Below are positions 11,881 through 43,140 of a DNA stretch of 64,000 bases, in pieces (the stretch's first letter is position 1; the number at the start of each line of letters is the position of its first letter). Location: assembly GCA_937944975.1 (NCBI GenBank), contig CALEBF010000012.1, forward strand, positions 17,748 to 81,747. Reading direction: 5' to 3'. A program made the translations under genes and the position numbers. The stretch is from an uncultured Mycoplasmatota bacterium. Its GTDB lineage: Bacteria; Bacillota_I; Bacilli_A; RF39; UBA660. The notes beneath the pieces are model-generated. The model did no database searches, was not told the origin of the DNA, and saw only the letters and a program-made list of their open reading frames with translations.

Positions 11881-12517
11881 TATGAAACTTGCAATTGTAA
11901 CAGTGATCATGGGAATGTTTTATCTACTTGTTTTAGGCCTTACAGGTCAGGAAGTATGGCTAAATACTTTAATTTCGACAGCACTTGACTTCATACAGAC
12001 ACCTATTTTAATAACTGTAATGAACGTAGTAAAATGGCTTGCGTCTTTTGAGTGTTTATTAATTGTCATGTTGCTTGCTACATTCTATCTGTATCGTAAA
12101 AAGAAAGAACAATCTCTAACTTATTTTCTATGCTTTGTCATCGCAGGGGGACTTGCTATGATTTTCTTGAAAGAATACTATGTTGTCGGGCATCCAGAAT
12201 TAAGTAAATTTTTACCCATTGCAGGACTTGGATACTTGAACATCGACGTGTTGTTTGGAACGTTCCTCTATGGAATGATATATGTATTGATGGATCAGGA
12301 AAATTCACTCGAACGGATGATAAAAAAAGTTTGTCTTGCTCTTATCATCGTCGTAGGAATTGCAAACTTCTATTTAAAAGTGAGCTACTTTAGCGATATT
12401 CTGCTCGGATATTTATTTGGCTTATTCTTGTGTTGGATCTTTGCGAAGGTGATCAAAAGGAACGTGACGAAATTGTCACTTGAAAACGATAGTACAAAAG
12501 ATAAAACTATGATATAA
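11881..12517 (+). CDS. integral membrane protein (possibly PAP2-like)
   Basis: About six TM segments. Weak PAP2-like C-terminal motif region. ATG at 11881. Confidence 0.35.
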
Positions 12518-12535
12518 TAAATTCTAGGTGATAAA

Positions 12536-13570
12536 ATGAAAGTGTTATTACATTCTGATAAACAAGAGCAAATAGCGAAAAGCGGTGTAGGGCGTGCGAT
12601 CGTTCACCAGCAGGAAGCATTGCGATTAAATGGTGTTGAGTATACATTAGATCCAAAAGATACAGATTATGATATCATTCATATCAATACGATTTTTCCG
12701 GAGTCTTATTTCATGGGGAAAAAGGCGAAAAAGATGGGAAAGAAGGTTATTTTTCATGCCCATTCGACAGAGGAAGACTTCCGTAATTCATATTTACTTA
12801 CGAATCAAGTTGCACCATTATTTAAAAAATGGTTGTGTAAACTCTATTCTTCAGCGGATCTTATCATTACGCCAACTCCTTATTCAAAGAGGCTTTTAGA
12901 TAATTATGGATTAGGAAAACCTATCATTGCGATTTCAAATGGGATCGATTTAGATTTTTATAAGCAAGATAAAAAGAAAGCGGAAAACTTTCGAAAGAAA
13001 TATGGTTTTTCCGATACGGATAAAATTATTATCTCTGTAGGTCTCTATATCGAACGAAAAGGTATTTTAGAGTTTGTCGAACTTGCAAAAAAAATGCCAG
13101 AGTACCAATTTATTTGGTTTGGTTATAGCAACTTGAATACAGTACCTTCTAAAATTAAAGAAGCAGTACAAACGAAATTAGATAATTTACATTTTCCCGG
13201 TTACGTTTCTAGGGAAGAATTGCGTGATGCTTATTTGGGATCAGATTTGTTTTTGTTTATGACACATGAAGAGACAGAGGGAATTGTCTTGTTGGAGGCT
13301 CTTGCTAGTAAGATTCCAACGTTGGTGCGAGACATTCCAATTTACGAAGGTTGGTTCGAAGATGGTAAGAACATCTATAAAGCATCTACACTTCCAGAAT
13401 TTGAAGAAAAGATTCATGGCATTTTGAACCATACATTAAAAGATGTTACGGAAGAGGGCTATAAAGTTGCCGAGGAAAGAGATATCAAATCGATTGGCGC
13501 TGAACTTAAAAAGGCGTACGAACGTGTATTAAATGAGCCGGAAAAAACAGAGTTAGAGGAGACAAAGTAG
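12536..13570 (+). CDS. family 4 glycosyltransferase (GT4)
   Basis: GT-B fold with EX7E-like motif EETEGIVLLEALASKIP. Confidence 0.75.
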   Translation: MKVLLHSDKQEQIAKSGVGRAIVHQQEALRLNGVEYTLDPKDTDYDIIHINTIFPESYFMGKKAKKMGKKVIFHAHSTEEDFRNSYLLTNQVAPLFKKWLCKLYSSADLIITPTPYSKRLLDNYGLGKPIIAISNGIDLDFYKQDKKKAENFRKKYGFSDTDKIIISVGLYIERKGILEFVELAKKMPEYQFIWFGYSNLNTVPSKIKEAVQTKLDNLHFPGYVSREELRDAYLGSDLFLFMTHEETEGIVLLEALASKIPTLVRDIPIYEGWFEDGKNIYKASTLPEFEEKIHGILNHTLKDVTEEGYKVAEERDIKSIGAELKKAYERVLNEPEKTELEETK

Positions 13571-35162: not shown

Positions 35163-35270
35163 AATTTTTTAAATTTATAAAAGAAAGAATTATAGAAAAA
35201 CATCGACTCCTTTCTTGACAAAAAAGAAAGGAACTAGGTATAATAGTAACAGAATGATAGCGAGGGGTAC

Positions 35271-36003
35271 TATGTCTAAATGGAAATATTTCATTGTTTT
35301 GCTGTTTTGTTTGGCAATTTTTCCAGATGTTGTATCTGCAGAGTCTTGTGATTATAATGTGTTATCCAGATTAAAAAATTATGCTAGTAATATAAAATAT
35401 GACTATAGTTATACCGAGCAAAATAATCAAGTTGTATTTACTGCGCGTTTTACAAATATTTCTGATAATGTCATTTTAACAGATAAGACAACGGGACAAA
35501 CTTATACAAATGTCGGAGAAATTACAATAGGAAACTTACAGCCTGGGAAGAGTTATGAATTTACTGTGATTCCTTCAAACAAAGGTTTAACAAGCGTGAT
35601 TAGACGTCAAAATATCTGGGGACAATGGGTGGAATATGAAGTTCCAACAGATGTAAACGAAAGTTGTAGAAACACAGAGTTAAAGAAGATTTATATTACA
35701 CTTCCATCGTACAACCCTTATTATAAATTACCTGTATGTGAAGGTGCAGAAGAATACGATATGTGTTTTAAATGGCAAAAGCACGAATTATCGGAAGAAC
35801 AATTTATAGAAGATGTAACAGAATATAAAGAGAAACATGCTGTACAAGAAGATGACGACAAAGAAAAAAAAGAAACATCATTGATAGAACAAATTATTAA
35901 GTTATTGCGAGACTATTATTATGTTCCAATTACGATCGCAATTATTATCGTAATTGCAGCAGTTTATATAAAGAAGAAACGAGAAGCAGAGGAAGGCTGG
36001 TAG
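35271..36003 (+). CDS. secreted Cys-rich protein with C-terminal TM anchor, unknown function
   Basis: TTGACA (35212) and TATAAT (35236) lie inside the track ORF. The real start is the ATG at 35271 after GAGGGG. Signal peptide, then eight Cys, then a TM anchor. Confidence 0.5.
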
Positions 36004-36004
36004 T

Positions 36005-38179
36005 ATGAAAAAGATATTTTACGGAATATTAGTCATTGGTATTGTTGGAATTATGGGATATGCTACACTACAAAATGCTGAGGAAGTTGAGGCAAAACCT
36101 ATTCCTCAAGATGAGTTATGTAAACAACCTGGTTATTTTGAAGATAGTTTTAGTTACAAAGAAAATGAATATTGTTCAACTACTTGTGTAGCAAAAGGAT
36201 ATACTGATTTTCCAACTGATATTACAACGGTAAATGTCGATCAAACAGTAAATGCCGGAGGACAATTTCAATGGGAAGAGATTCGAATCAATACGGAATT
36301 TGAATGTACGACAAACATCGATTATTCAAAGTGGTATAACGATTATAATCGCTTGATTGAAACTGCTAAACAAGCCTTGAGAAATATCGCTAGGGAAGCG
36401 CATCAATATCACACAAGAGATGTTATTGGACCTTGTAATATTCGAATTTATAATGGAACATATACAACTTATTCGAATACGAATTCATACGCTAGTGAAT
36501 GTTATAACTATGCCAATAGTACTAATGAATACATTAATTCAATTAGTAAAGTAAATGAATATGCTCCAAATGCTAATTGGAAGAGTGAAGCAACACGACA
36601 ACATATTTCTTTTGACGCACAATATTTTGAGCAAGGAACTAGAGATTGTTATTCATTGGGAGCAACTGGTGATCAGGGTAAGGCGTGTAAACCTGGATAC
36701 AGACCTGATGGTGCGAGCTTATGTTGTAAAGTTAATTCTTGGTATGAGTACAAATGTTATACAGAAAATTATAGTGTATCTAAGGGTGAACTAATTAAAT
36801 ATGAGAAAGTTCAATGTGGAGATACGGCAGATACATGTCATGTTGTAGATACTAAATATTATTGTAGTCAATCTATGCCTGTTTGGGATGTTAATTACGA
36901 TAACTATTGGGTAGATGTATTTAACGATGCAATGAGAAAATTAAAATCAATGGGATCCAATGGATTACCAGGAAAGTTAAAAGCTTGCAATGAATCAAGT
37001 GAGAAGAGAATTCAAAAAATTGCAAAGGATCCACGCACGATTGTACATTATGTAGATCCAACTGACAATTATCATGACGCGGAGAATTTACAGTTAGAAA
37101 CTGTGGTAGAACAGCCACTCACTATGACGACAACTCAAAAAACACCTGCTGCTAATCCAAACATACCGGTGTTGAATACAATTGCTGATGGGGTGTCTAA
37201 CAATGGGAACAGTAGTTTTAGTTTTACTGCATTGGGAAAAACTGCAGGTGTTAGATTATATACACAAACGACCTCAGCTGCTTATTCTCAATATGCCAAT
37301 ACTCAAGTTAAGAAAAAGGCAACTGCAAAATATAAATACGAGTTACCGGATGGATTTTATCAATATACGTTAAAACCTGATGGAAATATCGTTCATAAAC
37401 CGGGATCTACAGGAGCAAGTATGGCAAATCAAGGATCTATTAGCTCTTATGTGGATAGTGGGCGTTATATCGATTTAGGATACTCTAGCTATCCAGTACA
37501 TTATCAGACTCCAACGGGAATTTATCCGATTTCCTTAACTTATAATATTCCAGGAGTTATCGATGGAGATCGTTTGTACGAATGTATGTATCGTGTTAAA
37601 AATCGAATTGCTTGTCCAGAAGGTGAATGCCCTGATCCTGGAGAAGAAACGCCACCTGGAGATGGAGGAAATGATAATCCGACATGTCCAGATGGAGTGT
37701 GTGATGACGACGATCTATATTCTGGGCTCAATGTTGTGTATCGTTCAATAGCGTTATCTGCTCCGTTCCACTATAGAAATGGTAGGGTAAGAGAATCAGG
37801 TGAAAACTGGACTGATCAAGACATAAGCGAATTTATTTTAAACAACCGCGGAGTTTCAGATGATGATGTATATAATAAACAACCAATTTATGAATTTACT
37901 TTGACTCCTGCAGCGATTGCTGATATTCGAAAGTATAATAGTACGCATGAATTTTCTGATTTTAGAACGATGACGTGCTATGGAAAAGATGAGGAAGGAA
38001 AATCGATTGGTACAAAATGTAAGAGTCAATTTATCGACGACATGAAAGGTGTTTTAAATGCATCTGGATCTTGTATTACAAATCGTAGTGCTGCCGGCTT
38101 CTATAGTTGTGCTGGAAAGAAGTCAAATCAGGATCAAATTGATGTCGCGAAGATGTTAAATAAGAATGGAAGTTTATAA
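36005..38179 (+). CDS. large secreted Cys-rich protein (724 aa), unknown function
   Basis: Signal peptide/TM, many paired Cys, and a CPEGECPDPGEETPPGDGGNDNPTCPDGVCDDDD linker. Translationally coupled to the upstream gene. Confidence 0.5.
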   Translation: MKKIFYGILVIGIVGIMGYATLQNAEEVEAKPIPQDELCKQPGYFEDSFSYKENEYCSTTCVAKGYTDFPTDITTVNVDQTVNAGGQFQWEEIRINTEFECTTNIDYSKWYNDYNRLIETAKQALRNIAREAHQYHTRDVIGPCNIRIYNGTYTTYSNTNSYASECYNYANSTNEYINSISKVNEYAPNANWKSEATRQHISFDAQYFEQGTRDCYSLGATGDQGKACKPGYRPDGASLCCKVNSWYEYKCYTENYSVSKGELIKYEKVQCGDTADTCHVVDTKYYCSQSMPVWDVNYDNYWVDVFNDAMRKLKSMGSNGLPGKLKACNESSEKRIQKIAKDPRTIVHYVDPTDNYHDAENLQLETVVEQPLTMTTTQKTPAANPNIPVLNTIADGVSNNGNSSFSFTALGKTAGVRLYTQTTSAAYSQYANTQVKKKATAKYKYELPDGFYQYTLKPDGNIVHKPGSTGASMANQGSISSYVDSGRYIDLGYSSYPVHYQTPTGIYPISLTYNIPGVIDGDRLYECMYRVKNRIACPEGECPDPGEETPPGDGGNDNPTCPDGVCDDDDLYSGLNVVYRSIALSAPFHYRNGRVRESGENWTDQDISEFILNNRGVSDDDVYNKQPIYEFTLTPAAIADIRKYNSTHEFSDFRTMTCYGKDEEGKSIGTKCKSQFIDDMKGVLNASGSCITNRSAAGFYSCAGKKSNQDQIDVAKMLNKNGSL

Positions 38180-38197
38180 TTTCCATTCTTTTTTTCA
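38164..38197 (+). terminator. rho-independent terminator
   Basis: GAATGGAA-9 nt-TTCCATTC followed by T8. Confidence 0.7.
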
Positions 38198-38214
38198 TTA
38201 CTTTTAACAAAAAT

Positions 38215-38242
38215 TTGACAAAATCAAACTTTTGTATATAAT
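38215..38242 (+). promoter_or_regulatory. sigma-A-type promoter (TTGACA, 16 nt, TGtTATAAT)
   Basis: Near-consensus -35 and extended -10 upstream of the lipoprotein gene. Confidence 0.6.
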
Positions 38243-38270
38243 AGGAGTCATCAGGGAGGAGAATGATACA

Positions 38271-38879
38271 ATGGCTTTGAGTAAAACACAAAGCAAAAAG
38301 GCTTTATATAAGAAAGCTTTAGCTGCATTACTTGCAGGAACAATGGGAATGGGAATTGCTGGATGTAGCAATTCAAACGAAGGAACACAACCAGATTCAA
38401 AAGAACAAACGTCAGAGGTAAATGAAGATCCGAAAAGTGAGAAATTTGAACTTCCAACAGAAACGATGAGTGTTGAGGAAACACAGGCTTTGGAAGTTGG
38501 AACAGAGATTATGTTGACAGATTTAAGTAAAATGCCAAACGAAGCAACTTTAGAAGAAATGAATCGTTCTACAGCGTATTTATTAGATTTAAGTTTTAAG
38601 GATCAGAACGGAAAAGATATTGAGGGTGGAGTTATTATGAGTGGAACTTTACCTGATGGAATTTTAGATACAGGGTATATAGATGAACCATTAGAAGATG
38701 GCACAACAAGAAGAACAAAACTAGTTGGGATAACTATCGCACAAGTAGATTCATTTACTCAAGATGAAAATGGACAATGGATCAAAATGCTTACAGATGG
38801 TGAATATTTGTATGAAGGAACTCCTGTTGTTTCAGAAAAATTGTTACAACAATTTGGTGGACCTCAAAAAACTAAATAG
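38271..38879 (+). CDS. lipoprotein, paralogue family member A
   Basis: ATG at 38271 after GGAGG. Lipobox GIAGC. Shares the motif ..EET..L.....I....L.KMPNE.TLEE......Y.......NG with the 41619 and 42330 products. Confidence 0.5.
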   Translation: MALSKTQSKKALYKKALAALLAGTMGMGIAGCSNSNEGTQPDSKEQTSEVNEDPKSEKFELPTETMSVEETQALEVGTEIMLTDLSKMPNEATLEEMNRSTAYLLDLSFKDQNGKDIEGGVIMSGTLPDGILDTGYIDEPLEDGTTRRTKLVGITIAQVDSFTQDENGQWIKMLTDGEYLYEGTPVVSEKLLQQFGGPQKTK

Positions 38880-38895
38880 GGAAACTATTCACATT

Positions 38896-38934
38896 AAAAA
38901 TTGCTTTTAATATATAAAAGCAATTTTTTGTTTT
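38896..38934 (+). terminator. rho-independent terminator
   Basis: AAAATTGCTTTTA-5 nt-TAAAAGCAATTTT followed by a T-run. Confidence 0.65.
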
Positions 38935-39024
38935 AATAACATAGTTATTGATGATGAGGATATCAATTGACATTCTTTTTTTTATTCCGTATAATGAGCT
39001 TAGTATATAGTAAAGAGGGGTAAG

Positions 39025-40377
39025 ATGGGAAAACACAATAGAAAATCATTAAACAAAAAAAGTGTAATTGTTTTATATGCAAAAAAGTATATGAAGATTA
39101 TAGTAGGAATTGTTATCACGTTGATTGTGATAATTTGTGTTGCGACCATGTGGAACCAAGAACGGTTGAAAACGATTGCTGCTGATGTAAGAGAAATTAT
39201 GGAAAAAAATGACCTGACACAAGGACTTTTCCATATCAAAGGAAGTCGAGTTTATTATGAAGATAATGATAAGAAAGAACTAGTGGGTACACTACCTCTC
39301 TTTGGATGGGTAAATGGATATGTGCATTTGACGGAAAATAATGAAATGATTCGTATTTGGAATCATGGGTGGATTACATATAAAAATTATAATCAAAAGA
39401 ATATGAAAACTAGTCTGTTGTTTGCAAATCAAATGCTTACGTACAACACGATGGAAAATGAACAAGTATTTATTGTTCCTTCTACTGGAACTTATAAAAT
39501 AGAGTTATGGGGAGCAAAAGGCGGAGAATCTACTGCTTACCGTGATACGAATCCTTATGTTGGAAAAGGAGCTTATGTTTCAGGAGAAATCTTTTTGTGG
39601 AAAGGTGAGAAACTTTATTTACAAGTTGGATCAAAAGGGGAAGATGGAGAAAAGATTGAAGATTTGAGAAGATTTACTGCCTTTGGATATCCTTCTTCCG
39701 GTGGTAAAGGAGGATATAATGGTGGTGGAGACGGAATGGATGATTCTGAATTAAGCGCCGGCGGAGGTGGCGGAGGAGCTACCGATATTCGTCTAGTTTC
39801 TGGAAATTGGGATGACTTTGATTCTCTTAAGTCACGTATTATGGTTGCCGGAGGTGGCGGAGGAATGAGTCGGTTATATACTTATACTAACACTTCATAC
39901 GCGGATGCTGGATCAAGTGGATCTGGTGGAACTACAGAGGGTATAAAAGCGAAAGTGGTTTTATTTGATGACAATATATATGGTTATGGTTCTACACAAA
40001 CAGAAGGTTATCAATTTGGTGTTGGAGAAAATGGAGAATGGTGCTTATCTACATTAAATGGCCTTGGTGGAGGAGCTGGAGGTTATATGGGATCTCACTC
40101 CGGTGCTTGTAATAAAACAGACTGGTATCTTCCAACAGGTGCTGGCGGTGCTTCTTCATATGTATCTGGATGCAAGAATTGTAAGGCAATTAAAGAATCA
40201 TCTACAGAAGATAATTTAGAATTCGAAAAGAACAGTACTCATTATTCGGGCAAAAAATTTAAAAATATCGTTATGATCGATGGTGATAGCGAGATGCCAA
40301 GTACGAAGGATACGAAAAAGAAAATGACTGGTAATAATGGCGATGGTTATGCACGTATTACAAAGGTAGGTTGGTAA
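39025..40377 (+). CDS. glycine-rich membrane-anchored protein (Gly_rich-like domain)
   Basis: Own promoter (TTGACA 38967, TATAAT 38990). N-terminal TM. TGTYKIELWGAKGG start, followed by repeated GGGGGG tracts. Confidence 0.5.
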   Translation: MGKHNRKSLNKKSVIVLYAKKYMKIIVGIVITLIVIICVATMWNQERLKTIAADVREIMEKNDLTQGLFHIKGSRVYYEDNDKKELVGTLPLFGWVNGYVHLTENNEMIRIWNHGWITYKNYNQKNMKTSLLFANQMLTYNTMENEQVFIVPSTGTYKIELWGAKGGESTAYRDTNPYVGKGAYVSGEIFLWKGEKLYLQVGSKGEDGEKIEDLRRFTAFGYPSSGGKGGYNGGGDGMDDSELSAGGGGGGATDIRLVSGNWDDFDSLKSRIMVAGGGGGMSRLYTYTNTSYADAGSSGSGGTTEGIKAKVVLFDDNIYGYGSTQTEGYQFGVGENGEWCLSTLNGLGGGAGGYMGSHSGACNKTDWYLPTGAGGASSYVSGCKNCKAIKESSTEDNLEFEKNSTHYSGKKFKNIVMIDGDSEMPSTKDTKKKMTGNNGDGYARITKVGW

Positions 40378-40378
40378 C

Positions 40379-41503
40379 ATGATAGATAAGAGATTTATAT
40401 ATTTTGTTTTAGGGATTATTTTAGTTTTTATCGTATTAGAGTTTCTGCTTACCTATGTGCCTTTTTTAGAAAAAGAAACTGCGTATGCTTCGTTTGTAGA
40501 ACAAACAGATAAAATAAAAAAAGAAAAAGTAAATGAGATTACTGAATATCAGTTTGATAATGGCAATTTATATCGGACGCCAACTGGAGATATTTTTGGT
40601 TCCTGGGAGTATCCTAATTTCTGTATCGTTCAAGAATATCCAAGTAAAAAACCTGTGATTACAAGTGAATGCGAAAAAATCACTTATGATATTGCAGCAA
40701 AACATATAGAAAAGACAAGCGATACAAAAGATCTATTAGATGATACGGAAGTAACCGGGAAAGATACGACAAAGCCATTTAGTAGTAAAAAATACTTTGT
40801 AGGGACAAATCCTAATAACTATTTATATTATTCTGGTAGTTGTTATCGAGTTGTAAATATCGCTCAAAATGATACTGTGAAAGTTGTTTACGAGGGAATT
40901 GCAAATTCTGATGGAAGTTGTACTGATGTTGCTGATAATAATTCAGGAATGGTTATGCTTTATACTTGGGATGAAAATAAACAAAGATCTGGTAACTTTG
41001 AGAATGCTTCTACGTTAAAAGGAAATCTCGATCGTTTTTATGAAGAAGAAGAGATCAATACAGTAGCTATGAAGCAACCGATTGATACCAGTGTTATCGC
41101 AATGGCCGATTGGTATATTGGAAAAGTAAACGAAGGCAATACGACGTTACTTGAAGATATACAAAATGAACGAAGCGAAATATCAACGACACAGTTTCCA
41201 TTAGGGCTTTTAAATAATAGTGACTATTTAAAAATATCATGTCAAACATCTGGAGGTAAATCGACTACAGATTGCTCTAAGAATAACTATTTATATAAGT
41301 CAAAATATCAATGGTGGATGATCAACTATGGTGAAGAAAAAGATGCATGGTTTGTTCATAAAGATGGTACGATGAAGTCAGATACAATTGGTTATTCTCA
41401 TGAATATCGATTTAGTGGCGTTAGGATGGCATTCTACTTAAAAGCAGACACTTTACTAACTGGAAATGGAACGGAGAATAGCCCATATCGCATTATTAAA
41501 TAA
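40379..41503 (+). CDS. membrane-anchored extracellular protein, unknown function
   Basis: Coupled to the upstream gene (1-nt gap). N-terminal TM. C-terminus ...YQWWMINYG....AWFVHKDGT......YGVRMAFYLK resembles C-terminal modules of some Firmicute surface proteins. Confidence 0.45.
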   Translation: MIDKRFIYFVLGIILVFIVLEFLLTYVPFLEKETAYASFVEQTDKIKKEKVNEITEYQFDNGNLYRTPTGDIFGSWEYPNFCIVQEYPSKKPVITSECEKITYDIAAKHIEKTSDTKDLLDDTEVTGKDTTKPFSSKKYFVGTNPNNYLYYSGSCYRVVNIAQNDTVKVVYEGIANSDGSCTDVADNNSGMVMLYTWDENKQRSGNFENASTLKGNLDRFYEEEEINTVAMKQPIDTSVIAMADWYIGKVNEGNTTLLEDIQNERSEISTTQFPLGLLNNSDYLKISCQTSGGKSTTDCSKNNYLYKSKYQWWMINYGEEKDAWFVHKDGTMKSDTIGYSHEYRFSGVRMAFYLKADTLLTGNGTENSPYRIIK

Positions 41504-41511
41504 TAAATGAT

Positions 41512-41541
41512 AAAACCAATATCTCGCTATATTGGTTTTTA
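41512..41541 (+). terminator. rho-independent terminator
   Basis: AAACCAATAT-ctcgct-ATATTGGTTT followed by TT. Confidence 0.65.
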
Positions 41542-41618
41542 CATGTGATTTACAAACTGCTTGACAACTAGAATCATTCTTGTATAATATTTTTTTGTTA
41601 ATAAGGGGGGTGGATGAA

Positions 41619-42239
41619 ATGTTATTGATTGAAAAAAAGAAAACATTGTATAAAAAAATGCTTGCTATAGCGCTTGCTACTACTGCTACATTAGGAATGA
41701 CTGGATGCAATAATAACGAAATAGGTTCAGAAGAAGAATATTCTGATGTCATGATGAATAATGGTTCGAGATATGATGATAAAACATTTCAACAGGAACC
41801 GTTGAGTAAAAAATATTTACCCGAAGCTATTATGGATAGCACTAAAACAAAGCTTTTAGCAACTGGTACATATATTGATGCAGAGGATTTAAACGAGATG
41901 CCGGATGAGAAGACGCTTGAATTGAATGATCAGGCAATTTGTTATTGGTATTCAAGTAGTACAGAACAAAACGGAGAATTAGTGAACACAAAATATGCGT
42001 TGTCATACCCAGAGTTTTTATATCCTGATGGTGCTGCTACAGTTATGAAAGAAGAAGGAAAAGACGTAATCCATTTTCTTGGAATTGAGATTGTCGATAT
42101 CATTGATTATCAAAAAGACAAGGATGGAGATTACGAGAAATACATTCAACTTGAATCAAATGAGATTGTATCTGCTGGGCGTGTCTTGTCAGAAAGTAAG
42201 ATAGAGGAATTAGATGGAAATCAAAAAGTATTAAAATAA
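41619..42239 (+). CDS. lipoprotein, paralogue family member B
   Basis: Promoter TTGACA/TATAAT near 41560-41590. AAGGGGGG RBS and ATG at 41619. Lipobox GMTGC. Paralogous to 38271 and 42330. Confidence 0.5.
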   Translation: MLLIEKKKTLYKKMLAIALATTATLGMTGCNNNEIGSEEEYSDVMMNNGSRYDDKTFQQEPLSKKYLPEAIMDSTKTKLLATGTYIDAEDLNEMPDEKTLELNDQAICYWYSSSTEQNGELVNTKYALSYPEFLYPDGAATVMKEEGKDVIHFLGIEIVDIIDYQKDKDGDYEKYIQLESNEIVSAGRVLSESKIEELDGNQKVLK

Positions 42240-42265
42240 GATGGAATTGATTTCCATTTTTTTGT
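42240..42265 (+). terminator. rho-independent terminator
   Basis: ATGGAA-ttgatt-TTCCAT followed by TTTTTT. Confidence 0.65.
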
Positions 42266-42329
42266 TTGACAAGTATTTAGAATTGAGATACTATGATATT
42301 AGATAAAAGATTAAAGATTGAGGGGTTTT

Positions 42330-42893
42330 ATGATGCAAAACATTGTTAGATATAATCAGGCATTTAGAGAAAAACTTTTCAGTAGAAGTTCTGAGCTTGT
42401 CTTGAATAAGGCTATTTCTTTGGAAGAGGATGACAATGTTTCTTATTTACCACATACGACTATGAGTAAAGAAGAGACTAATCAGTTAATCCTTTGTCAA
42501 GAAATTAAAGTTGAAAATTTGAAAAAGATGCCTAATGAAAAAGTATTAGATGAACGTATGATGACATTAGCATATCATTACCGTACGTTATTGGATCGAA
42601 ATGGAAAACTAGAACCTCTCGATTTGAAAGTGACAGTAGGCGAACCTCTTCGCAATGATCAATTATTTCGAAAGCGGTGTTATTTGGAGAATGGTAAACT
42701 GTATGATCTCCACTATGTTTTTGATGCGATTTCAATTCATCCGGTGTTTCGATATTATCAATTAAGAGAAGATCAGGAAGGAATTTTTTATAAATTAGGT
42801 ATTGTCAATGGAAAAGAACTTCCATGCGGTGTGGTAAAATCTCCTAAAAAAGTACGTGAATTAAGTCAAAATTACTACATACAAACAATTTAG
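42330..42893 (+). CDS. cytoplasmic paralogue (family member C) of the two lipoproteins
   Basis: No signal peptide. Shares the TMSKEET...L.KMPNEKVL.E....AY.......NG block. Own TTGACA promoter. Confidence 0.45.
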   Translation: MMQNIVRYNQAFREKLFSRSSELVLNKAISLEEDDNVSYLPHTTMSKEETNQLILCQEIKVENLKKMPNEKVLDERMMTLAYHYRTLLDRNGKLEPLDLKVTVGEPLRNDQLFRKRCYLENGKLYDLHYVFDAISIHPVFRYYQLREDQEGIFYKLGIVNGKELPCGVVKSPKKVRELSQNYYIQTI

Positions 42894-42904
42894 AAGATAT
42901 ATTA

Positions 42905-43140
42905 TATTCTTGACGTTTGATAGAAAATCTTATATACTAAGAGTAGATTTCAGATGAAGTGGAAGAGTATAAAAAGATACACTTTAAAGAGACGATATGG
43001 TTGGTGAAAATATCGAGTGTTATTTTTAGAAGACACCATGGATGAAAACGTAGTCTTTGCGTTAAAAAGAGCGAGGTAGAGAAGTCTATGAAATAAGGTG
43101 GTACCGCGCGATCAGCGCCCTTATATCTAGCTTCTTTTTA
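42905..43140 (+). promoter_or_regulatory. T-box riboswitch leader
   Basis: Conserved T-box sequence AAGGTGGTACCGCGCG at 43095-43110, followed by a short GC hairpin and a T-run. hisS-aspS operons in Firmicutes are classically T-box controlled. Confidence 0.55.

Follow-up and report, generated by a model that had tools for sequence, protein, structure and literature searches.

Several described systems come close to one part or another of the locus reported here. The F-type conjugation proteins of F-like plasmids include TraN together with the thioredoxin-like TraF/TrbB, and in the receptor kinases ALK and LTK a glycine-rich domain (GRD) forms part of the cytokine-binding ectodomain. Our locus belongs to a member of RF39 (Candidatus Fimihabitans group), RF39 being a group of common, uncultured gut bacteria with small genomes. 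It is a block of seven genes, here called g1 to g7, in a 64,000-nucleotide stretch of DNA, hereafter referred to as the window (assembly GCA_937944975.1, contig CALEBF010000012.1, positions 17,748 to 81,747 of the forward strand), and it encodes surface-type proteins whose relatives recur beside a secretion-type ATPase.

Modular type IV pilins, a concept laid out in PMC8179133 and exemplified by PilB and PilC of Streptococcus sanguinis (PMC8179133, PMC9934059), are proteins in which a bulky C-terminal module for binding, lectin-like in PilC, follows a long N-terminal helix and a small β-sheet. For gut Clostridia (Roseburia, Ruminococcus and Eubacterium), a computational study predicted a 'secretion-related' operon with DUF5411, CpaF and PilC/GspF (Miller, Stern & Burstein 2022, PMC9523054). 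DUF6273 (PF19789), the N-terminal domain of an immunoglobulin A (IgA) peptidase, is C-type-lectin-like (PMC12237041, PMC12402451); the domain is also found in phage receptor-binding proteins and is targeted by diversity-generating retroelements (DGRs; PMC10743442).

On balance, we consider it probable that an uncharacterised envelope machine, combining type IV filament and type IV secretion ancestry, has its surface-exposed 'contact' module in g1–g7, relocated from the rest. The block would be a coherent system because its genes encode the exposed parts of a machine whose motor genes lie elsewhere, and it probably decides what the cell sticks to. What sets the locus apart is the presence of GRD and putative DUF6273 heads on predicted pilin-like anchors that lack a prepilin motif, the split two-locus architecture and the confinement of allelic variation to a sharp-edged island.

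Conservation of the block and recurrence of its families in an ATPase cluster

Seven consecutive open reading frames (ORFs) on the + strand, at 35272–42893, are organised in five transcription units and code for proteins that are exported or anchored in the membrane. An initial annotation of the window had described the same seven genes, with a g1 start (35271) that was off by one; the start codons of all seven were reset from ribosome-binding site context. The first gene, g1 (35272–36003), encodes a type I membrane protein of 243 residues, which has a signal peptide and a C-terminal transmembrane segment as well as an Fn3-like region, conserved cysteines (five in the feature analysis) and a conserved ...GW end. 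The product of g2 (36005–38179) is a secreted, cysteine-rich protein of 724 residues with a signal peptide, 24 cysteines and a conserved C-terminal domain. The lipoproteins encoded by g3 (38271–38879; 202 residues, lipobox IAGC at residues 29–32) and g6 (41619–42239; 206 residues, lipobox MTGC at residues 27–30) are paralogues, and in both the lipobox (sought as [LVI][ASTVI][GAS]C) ends a signal peptide. Between them lie g4 (39025–40377), for a 450-residue membrane-anchored protein with 15% glycine that consists of an N-terminal transmembrane helix, a module of ~100 residues and an ALK/LTK-type GRD, and g5 (40379–41503), for a 374-residue protein with an N-terminal transmembrane segment that is predicted to have a 44-residue N-terminal helix, a small pilin-like sheet and a DUF6273-type C-type-lectin-like head. 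The last gene, g7 (42330–42893), encodes a 187-residue paralogue of g3 and g6 (27–31% identity to them) that has neither signal peptide nor lipobox; its length is kept in relatives, at 76–98% amino acid identity. A single nucleotide separates the genes of both the g1/g2 and the g4/g5 pair. The annotation's portrayal of a coupled cysteine-rich pair, two lipoproteins, a glycine-rich protein paired with an anchored one, and a cytoplasmic paralogue, the set being generally exported or anchored, was borne out by feature analysis.

The same block lies at the same site, between the AI-2E transporter gene and hisS, in every relative of the genus examined (L001–L010, L014 and L015; L numbers denote fetched loci). 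The closest named relative that carries it is Candidatus Fimihabitans intestinipullorum (L015), which belongs to GTDB genus UMGS1648 of the order RF39 (PMC8035907). L015 has no g6 match, g5 being directly followed by g7 around 12440–12602 of that locus, so that the number of lipoprotein paralogues, and hence gene content, varies.

Five other RF39-like genomes (L011/L040, L012, L016, L017 and L018) have homologues of g1, g2, g4 and g5 together and co-directional, directly upstream of genes for DUF5411, CpaB and the ATPase. The identities to the block proteins are 32–37% for g1, 27–33% for g2, 43–49% for g4 and 30–42% for g5. The cluster in which these homologues are embedded runs from secA through genes for a membrane TraF-like thioredoxin, bPH_3, a lipoprotein, g1, g2, g4, g5 and a 536-residue membrane protein to DUF5411, CpaB, a CpaF/VirB11-family ATPase and two polytopic membrane proteins, which are followed by a pilin-like protein of 54–61 residues, two pseudopilin-like proteins of 140–150 residues and VirB3/VirB6/VirB4-like genes. 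The g3-like lipoprotein is found in the cluster of L011/L040, L012 and L018, and none was detected in L016 or L017. In L054 and L064 the embedded arrangement is partial, a divergent g2-like protein abutting DUF5411 in L054, and the independent contig L093 has the order g1-like protein, 1243-residue g2-like protein, DUF5411. The block is thus kept as a unit within the genus, at one site in all relatives examined, and its families recur together in other genera, in agreement with the earlier proposal of a dedicated, co-inherited cell-surface system rather than a chance run of hypothetical genes.

The modules of the relatives' clusters were assigned by profile scores. DUF5411 matched with E 4e-53 and T2SSE with E 7e-29; RcpC/CpaB scored 31.6 bits (cut-off 28.8), the TraF-like thioredoxin was above its cut-off and the TIGR03177 match (E 2e-8) was below its own. 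In the machine locus L099 (see below), but not in the window, a VirB4-family ATPase was identified by P-loop_TraG (47.7 bits, cut-off 25.8) and AAA_10 (43.6 bits, cut-off 27.5). The PrgI, TrbL_4 and T4SS_pilin matches were sub-threshold.

The machine locus in Candidatus Fimihabitans

The ATPase family is very large and conserved, with 7594 clusters at 75–96% identity. Its most populous cluster includes HIU22059.1 of Candidatus Fimihabitans intestinipullorum, which is identical to the ATPase of fifteen machine loci, L094–L108. These loci contain, in order, secA, the thioredoxin gene, bPH_3, a gene for a 537-residue membrane protein, a gap of 220 nt, and the genes for DUF5411, CpaB and the ATPase, continuing onward to the VirB4-like gene. 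Hidden Markov models (HMMs) of g1–g7 gave zero matches in L094–L108, although all 12 other cluster families were present. The families missing from the machine locus are exactly those of the block, and this complementarity, more than any other observation, leads us to regard the block as a part of the machine that has been relocated.

Machine locus L106 shares its metagenome of origin, sample ERZ28614638, with block contig L006. The base composition of machine and block loci (G+C and tetranucleotides) is compatible with one lineage but not discriminating, and the ranking of other genera by identity likewise fits a single lineage for both. The hybrid cluster in Candidatus Fimihabitans-type genomes is apparently a core chromosomal machine with Tad-like and type IV secretion system (T4SS)-like parts. 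It lies next to secA (for instance at L099 5500–21290), and beyond the CpaF/VirB11 ATPase it encodes two membrane proteins, small pilin-like proteins, weakly recognisable relatives of T4SS_pilin, TrbL and PrgI and, clearly, an ATPase of VirB4 type. The 20 kb fetched, which end inside the VirB4-like gene, contained neither a coupling protein nor a relaxase.

With the Tad/Flp (type IVc) pilus, the relatives' clusters share a CpaF/TadA-family ATPase and a CpaB/RcpC-like protein, both of which are also present in the Fimihabitans locus. They further share two polytopic membrane proteins, encoded one after the other in the TadB/TadC position, followed by a pilin-like protein of ~58 residues and two pseudopilin-like proteins of ~140 residues, which resemble their Tad counterparts in position, size and hydrophobic N-termini alone. 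They differ from it in that no TadV peptidase or TadZ was identified and that T4SS-like genes are attached. DUF5411, a CpaF-family ATPase, polytopic membrane proteins and a large exported protein upstream are features in common with the operon predicted in PMC9523054. The combination of DUF5411, CpaF ATPase and PilC/GspF-like protein was found in the relatives' clusters and in the separate Fimihabitans locus, and not in the window. The present clusters differ from that operon in belonging to RF39 Bacilli, in having additional VirB4/VirB3/VirB6-like genes and a TraF-like thioredoxin, and in the splitting off of the exposed components to a second locus; the paper reports no GRD or DUF6273 components.

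The interval between secA and the thioredoxin gene of L094–L108 (for example L099 4911–5252 and L100 4647–5477) contains small ORFs (97, 106, 113, 168 or 180 residues) that differ between near-identical loci, and it may be a second variable spot. In L096, L098, L105 and L106, secA appears truncated to a 41-residue SEC-C remnant.

Domains and predicted folds of the block proteins

The initial annotation had seen no recognisable enzymatic domains in the block and took its products for unknown surface proteins. That no domain can be recognised is wrong for g4, of which residues 153–447 match PF12810 (ALK_LTK_GRD) from end to end, with E 2.9e-46 and 158.9 bits against a cut-off of 24.5, covering profile positions 6–242 of 243; g5, in turn, has a predicted pilin-like fold and a DUF6273-type head. 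The GRD of g4 differs from that of the ALK/LTK receptors in its setting, since it forms the head of a bacterial protein that is small, anchored in the membrane and putatively pilin-like. Literature searches on PF12810 or GRD in bacteria returned nothing relevant.

No Pfam family matched g5, and a profile search against PDB sequences gave nothing useful. In the AlphaFold2 model of the protein, which was confident (predicted local distance difference test score, pLDDT, 84; predicted template modelling score, pTM, 0.84), a 44-residue helix at the N-terminus is accompanied by a small sheet, and the C-terminal domain is globular. A prepilin N_methyl motif occurs together with DUF6273 in P0027, a distant homologue of g5. 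Based on the motifs of P0027, the AlphaFold2 model and the role of DUF6273 as a receptor-binding domain, g5 is predicted to have the modular-pilin architecture (PMC8179133) without the class III signal motif.

The relatives of g4 provide a further connection to pilins. Seventeen of the 111 GRD proteins in related metagenome-assembled genomes (MAGs) have a canonical prepilin N-terminus of the KGFTLIE type, and these include all eight that are encoded divergently from a T2SSE ATPase gene. By hhalign (E 8e-60), the prepilin-type proteins and g4 have homologous GRDs; the alignment covers only the GRD and not the N-terminal module.

Compared with the modular type IV pilins, g5, judging by its predicted structure, and probably g4 would have the same succession of long N-terminal helix, small β-sheet and bulky C-terminal binding module; the module of g5 would be lectin-like, as in PilC, and both head families have relatives in which the head is still joined to a genuine prepilin N-terminus. 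The differences are that the class III signal peptide (G-1, E+5) is missing from g4 and g5, that the ATPase associated with the block families is of the CpaF/VirB11 rather than the PilB/PilF type, that the block genes lie away from the machine genes, and that ALK-type GRD and DUF6273 heads were not among the described examples that we found.

Other occurrences of the GRD were noted. In the divergent arrangement mentioned above, a GRD protein of ~530 residues with a canonical prepilin N-terminus is separated by ~650 bp from a T2SSE-family ATPase gene (L027, L035, L038, L041, L043, L059, L063 and L083, from other uncultured Bacilli), a second case in which a GRD-headed pilin is repeatedly found paired with a motor gene. 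The domain also occurs in giant proteins of 2400–4800 residues in related MAGs (L021, L023, L031, L039 and L019), and Segatella albensis (L034) has a run of tandem ORFs of ~280–305 residues that consist of the GRD only, each beginning with VQTFTAP.

The remaining families gave few matches. The Fn3 matches of g1 were weak and below the cut-off, and a profile of the g3/g6/g7 lipoprotein family had no match in PDB, Pfam or NCBIfam. For g2 there was no Pfam family at E <= 1, no NCBIfam match and no PDB sequence match, a profile search included; its AlphaFold2 model was poor (mean pLDDT 50, pTM 0.40), and a Foldseek comparison of this model with the PDB was meaningless. Full-length homologues of g2 are rare, amounting to eight clusters at 90% identity in 5.8 billion proteins, and every one of them lies in this seven-gene block, at the chromosomal position that it has in the window. 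The C-terminal 150–280 residues of g2 are more widespread: a profile search of 1.84 billion representatives recovered them as a domain situated at the very C-terminus of large, otherwise unannotated proteins, in more than 400 clusters. The block families are thus not confined to one lineage, contrary to the earlier description of the block proteins as lineage-specific. The undescribed domain includes, at residues ~560–715 of g2, a motif of the form GLNVVYRPISL...NW...NNR...VYN..P.Y.FTLT. The proteins that contain it are 700–1300 residues long and have no Pfam annotation; one of them carries a dockerin.

The block is a hypervariable, recombining island

In comparisons of the window with L003, L005 and L008, the flanking housekeeping proteins were 95–99% identical. 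Within the block, amino acid identity to L003 and L005 was 36–51% for g1, g2 and g3 and 67–70% for g4 and g5. In their DNA, the near-conspecific L003 and L014 match the flanks of the window at 94–98% identity; identity falls abruptly at ~35200, to 30–60% over g1–g3, and recovers after ~42900. The alleles are also mosaic. L005 combines a divergent g1–g5 segment with a near-identical g6–g7 segment, and L008 has flanks of ~89% DNA identity to the window, yet 96–97% identity over g5–g7.

Synonymous divergence (dS) followed the same pattern. Between the window and L003, it was ~0.2 in the flanks and 0.8–2.2 in the block; between the window and L008, it was 0.6–0.9 in the flanks and only 0.04–0.2 in g5–g7, which are therefore closer to this sister species than are the flanks. 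The ratio of nonsynonymous to synonymous divergence (dN/dS) was 0.01–0.05 in the flanks and 0.08–0.59 in the block. The fastest-evolving block gene is g3, with 0.34–0.59 and 36–44% amino acid identity to relatives with 95–99% identical flanks. The block genes are intact, under purifying selection and kept together. These identity, dS and dN/dS patterns indicate that the genes are functional yet fast-evolving, and that their alleles cross lineages by recombination.

Variation in g2 is concentrated in a cassette of roughly 160 residues (~121–280; 36365..36845, + strand), where identity is 17–82% among alleles that are 88–100% identical elsewhere. Against L008, the DNA identity of g2 is 37% over 36400–36800. 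The cassette keeps seven cysteines, at residues 144, 215, 228, 240, 251, 271 and 278.

Interpretation and alternatives

If the block is the contact module of the machine, its parts can be assigned provisional roles. Both g4 and g5 would be pilin-derived carriers, each presenting a binding head, the ALK-type GRD in the one and the DUF6273 C-type-lectin-like domain in the other, on a long N-terminal helix and a small sheet. The membrane-anchored g1 and the secreted g2 may together make a disulfide-rich exposed component, which would probably be oxidised by the membrane thioredoxin of the cluster, and the hypervariable cassette of g2 would set ligand or partner specificity. The lipoprotein-family members g3, g6 and g7 could be accessory or assembly factors. 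The consensus promoters (see below) predict high and probably constitutive expression, as would be expected of structural surface proteins that have to reach, in trans, a machine encoded elsewhere. Deeply divergent alleles would be exchanged by homologous recombination in the conserved flanks, under a diversifying, frequency-dependent selection that phages, host immunity or partner recognition might impose.

A number of observations weigh against this assignment. Neither tblastn nor HMM searches found ATPase, DUF5411, CpaB or pilin-like genes in the 64-kb window, and the evidence for the machine comes from the genus, through the organism name, and from a co-occurring sample rather than directly from assembly GCA_902493485.1, in whose contig CABUPC010000003.1 the sequence search placed the window. 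No Pfam or NCBIfam model matches the putative TadB, TadC, Flp and TadE-like proteins (300, 260, 58, 140 and 145 residues), so that the designation 'Tad-like' is founded on the ATPase, CpaB and gene order. The signals of g1, g2, g3 and g6 are of the ordinary Sec or lipoprotein kind, with which the proteins could act without a dedicated machine. As for the pilin connection, the N-terminal modules of g4 and g5 are only weakly similar to each other (hhalign probability 59%). There is no N_methyl match and no G-[FYM]-[TS]-L-x-E motif in g4, g5 or their orthologues, prepilin peptidase processing needing a class III signal. No prepilin peptidase gene was found among the fetched loci, to which that search was confined.

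The main competing explanation, which we regard as possible though rather unlikely, is that the block is an autonomous island of surface antigens or adhesins, exported by Sec and anchored by lipid or transmembrane segments independently of any machine, and that the adjacency to the ATPase reflects a shared 'envelope' neighbourhood next to secA. All exported members do have standard Sec, lipoprotein or signal-anchor N-termini without a prepilin motif, the block has its own promoters and terminators and is physically apart from the machine throughout the genus, and hypervariability is typical of any exposed antigen. However, the tight co-directional order of g1, g2 and DUF5411 recurs in genomes at 27–37% g1/g2 identity, g5 and many GRD proteins derive from prepilins or still are prepilins, and the genes absent from the Fimihabitans machine locus coincide with the block genes. 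Two other explanations have little support. Interbacterial antagonism, in which g2 or g4/g5 would be a contact-dependent effector and the small paralogues (the cytoplasmic g7 among them) would act like immunity proteins, could account for the allelic diversity; it accords with the high polymorphism, with the several copies of a small-protein family, one of them cytoplasmic, and with the secretion-type ATPase cluster to which the families are tied in relatives. Such a polymorphic-toxin locus is nevertheless very improbable. No toxin, nuclease, peptidase, Rhs/LXG/PT-type or immunity domain was found in any of the proteins, nor did PADLOC defence models give any match or any toxin or immunity signature emerge for an interbacterial role. 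Moreover, the variable part of g2 is internal and its C-terminus is the most widely conserved part, unlike the polymorphic toxins, which vary at the C-terminal tip, and extracellular lipoproteins such as g3 and g6 would be an unusual place for immunity to an enzymatic toxin. A remnant of a prophage or integrative element with receptor-binding-type proteins would explain the sharp boundaries, at ~35200 and ~42900, and the allelic replacement. The GRD matches three PHROG families (E 7e-28 to 8e-24; PHROGs matched the GRD alone), and the occurrence of DUF6273 in phage receptor-binding proteins and as a DGR target points the same way. But the ORF list and a repeat search revealed no integrase, transposase, capsid, tail or replication genes, no flanking repeats and no DGR-type template/variable repeat pairs with the island; its G+C content is like that of the flanks, it occupies the same site in every relative, scans of IMG/VR for close relatives of g4 and g5 were essentially negative, and tblastn of g2 found no match in 72,556 plasmids and none in phage records. 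A mobile origin is, in our judgement, very improbable as well.

A more specific version of the contact-module reading, which we put forward as a speculation of doubtful standing, draws on analogy with conjugation. By this analogy, g2, held by g1, would be a functional counterpart of the F-plasmid TraN; the g2 cassette and the g4/g5 heads would choose the partner cell, a bacterium or a host surface, for the chromosomal hybrid Tad-like/T4SS-like machine that would be core to RF39, and the divergent, recombining alleles would define compatibility or 'mating' types within a species. Like TraN, g2 is a cysteine-rich exported protein of ~700 residues with conserved ends and a hypervariable centre, and its homologues in relatives are encoded beside a TraF-like thioredoxin and T4SS-like genes. 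Unlike TraN, it has no detectable similarity to TraN or to any Pfam family and no plasmid homologues, and its host is of the monoderm type, without an outer membrane. Should the TraN-like reading prove true, the locus would represent a dedicated system for cell–cell contact or DNA exchange in uncultured gut Bacilli with reduced genomes, and it would offer a first functional context for a bacterial ALK-type GRD, that of a pilin-borne adhesin head.

More generally, the locus points to what may be the main exposed, rapidly diversifying surface apparatus of RF39 and would tie it to a conserved machine with DUF5411 and a CpaF/VirB11-type ATPase, earlier merely predicted computationally in Clostridia. 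Bacterial homologues of the ALK/LTK GRD gain a genomic and structural context, as putative heads on pilin-type scaffolds, and the lectin-like fold of DUF6273 appears to be used likewise. A sharp-edged allelic island within near-identical flanks is a natural marker for strain typing, and it lends itself to testing whether phage, IgA or partner recognition impose frequency-dependent selection on a gut commensal.

Transcription units and flanking genes

The block contains all four perfect TTGACA-N16-18-TATAAT matches of the 64-kb window; 0.17 would be expected by chance, and none of 100 shuffles reached four. These 12/12 sites, all on the + strand, are P1 (TTGACA-18-TATAAT, 35215..35244) for g1–g2, P2 (38215..38242) for g3, P3 (38967..38995) for g4–g5 and P4 (41561..41588) for g6. 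A fifth promoter, P5 (TTGACA-17-TACTAT, 42266..42294, + strand), precedes g7 and matches at 10/12 positions. Of these promoters, the divergent allele L003 retains P1 (as an 11/12 site at the same position), P2 and P4 (both 12/12) and P5 (the same site), which precede g1, g3, g6 and g7, respectively.

Hairpin terminators fold at the four places previously reported, with modest stability (-8 to -13 kcal/mol, z -3.3 to -4.6) and A+T-rich sequence. T1 (38162..38190), after g2 and overlapping its stop codon, has a 13-bp stem and a U-run (-13.4 kcal/mol, z -4.6). T2 (38896..38928), after g3, has a 14-bp A+T-rich stem and a U-run (-12.4 kcal/mol, z -4.0) and is absent in L003-type alleles. T3 (41512..41539), after g5, and T4 (42238..42260), after g6, have stems of 11 bp (-11.2 kcal/mol, z -3.4) and 9 bp (-8.1 kcal/mol, z -3.3), respectively, each with a U-run; all four are on the + strand. 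No terminator hairpin folds after g7, before the T-box promoter, or after the AI-2E gene. From the positions of the promoters and terminators, the transcription units are g1–g2, g3, g4–g5, g6 and g7. The initial annotation's near-consensus promoter for each unit was thereby corroborated; the individual insulation of units that it described is not conserved. In L003, the gap between g3 and g4 is only 22 nt and g3–g4–g5 form one unit, so that unit-by-unit insulation is no fixed property of the block.

The flanks were as annotated, with the AI-2E transporter gene (PF01594) before the block and a T-box leader (RF00230, 103 bits, 42945–43125) after it, the leader being followed by the nitroreductase gene, hisS and aspS. 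The T-box leader has a 10/12 promoter of its own at 42910. It is unusual for a nitroreductase gene to come first in a T-box operon of aminoacyl-tRNA synthetases, as it does in this hisS–aspS operon.

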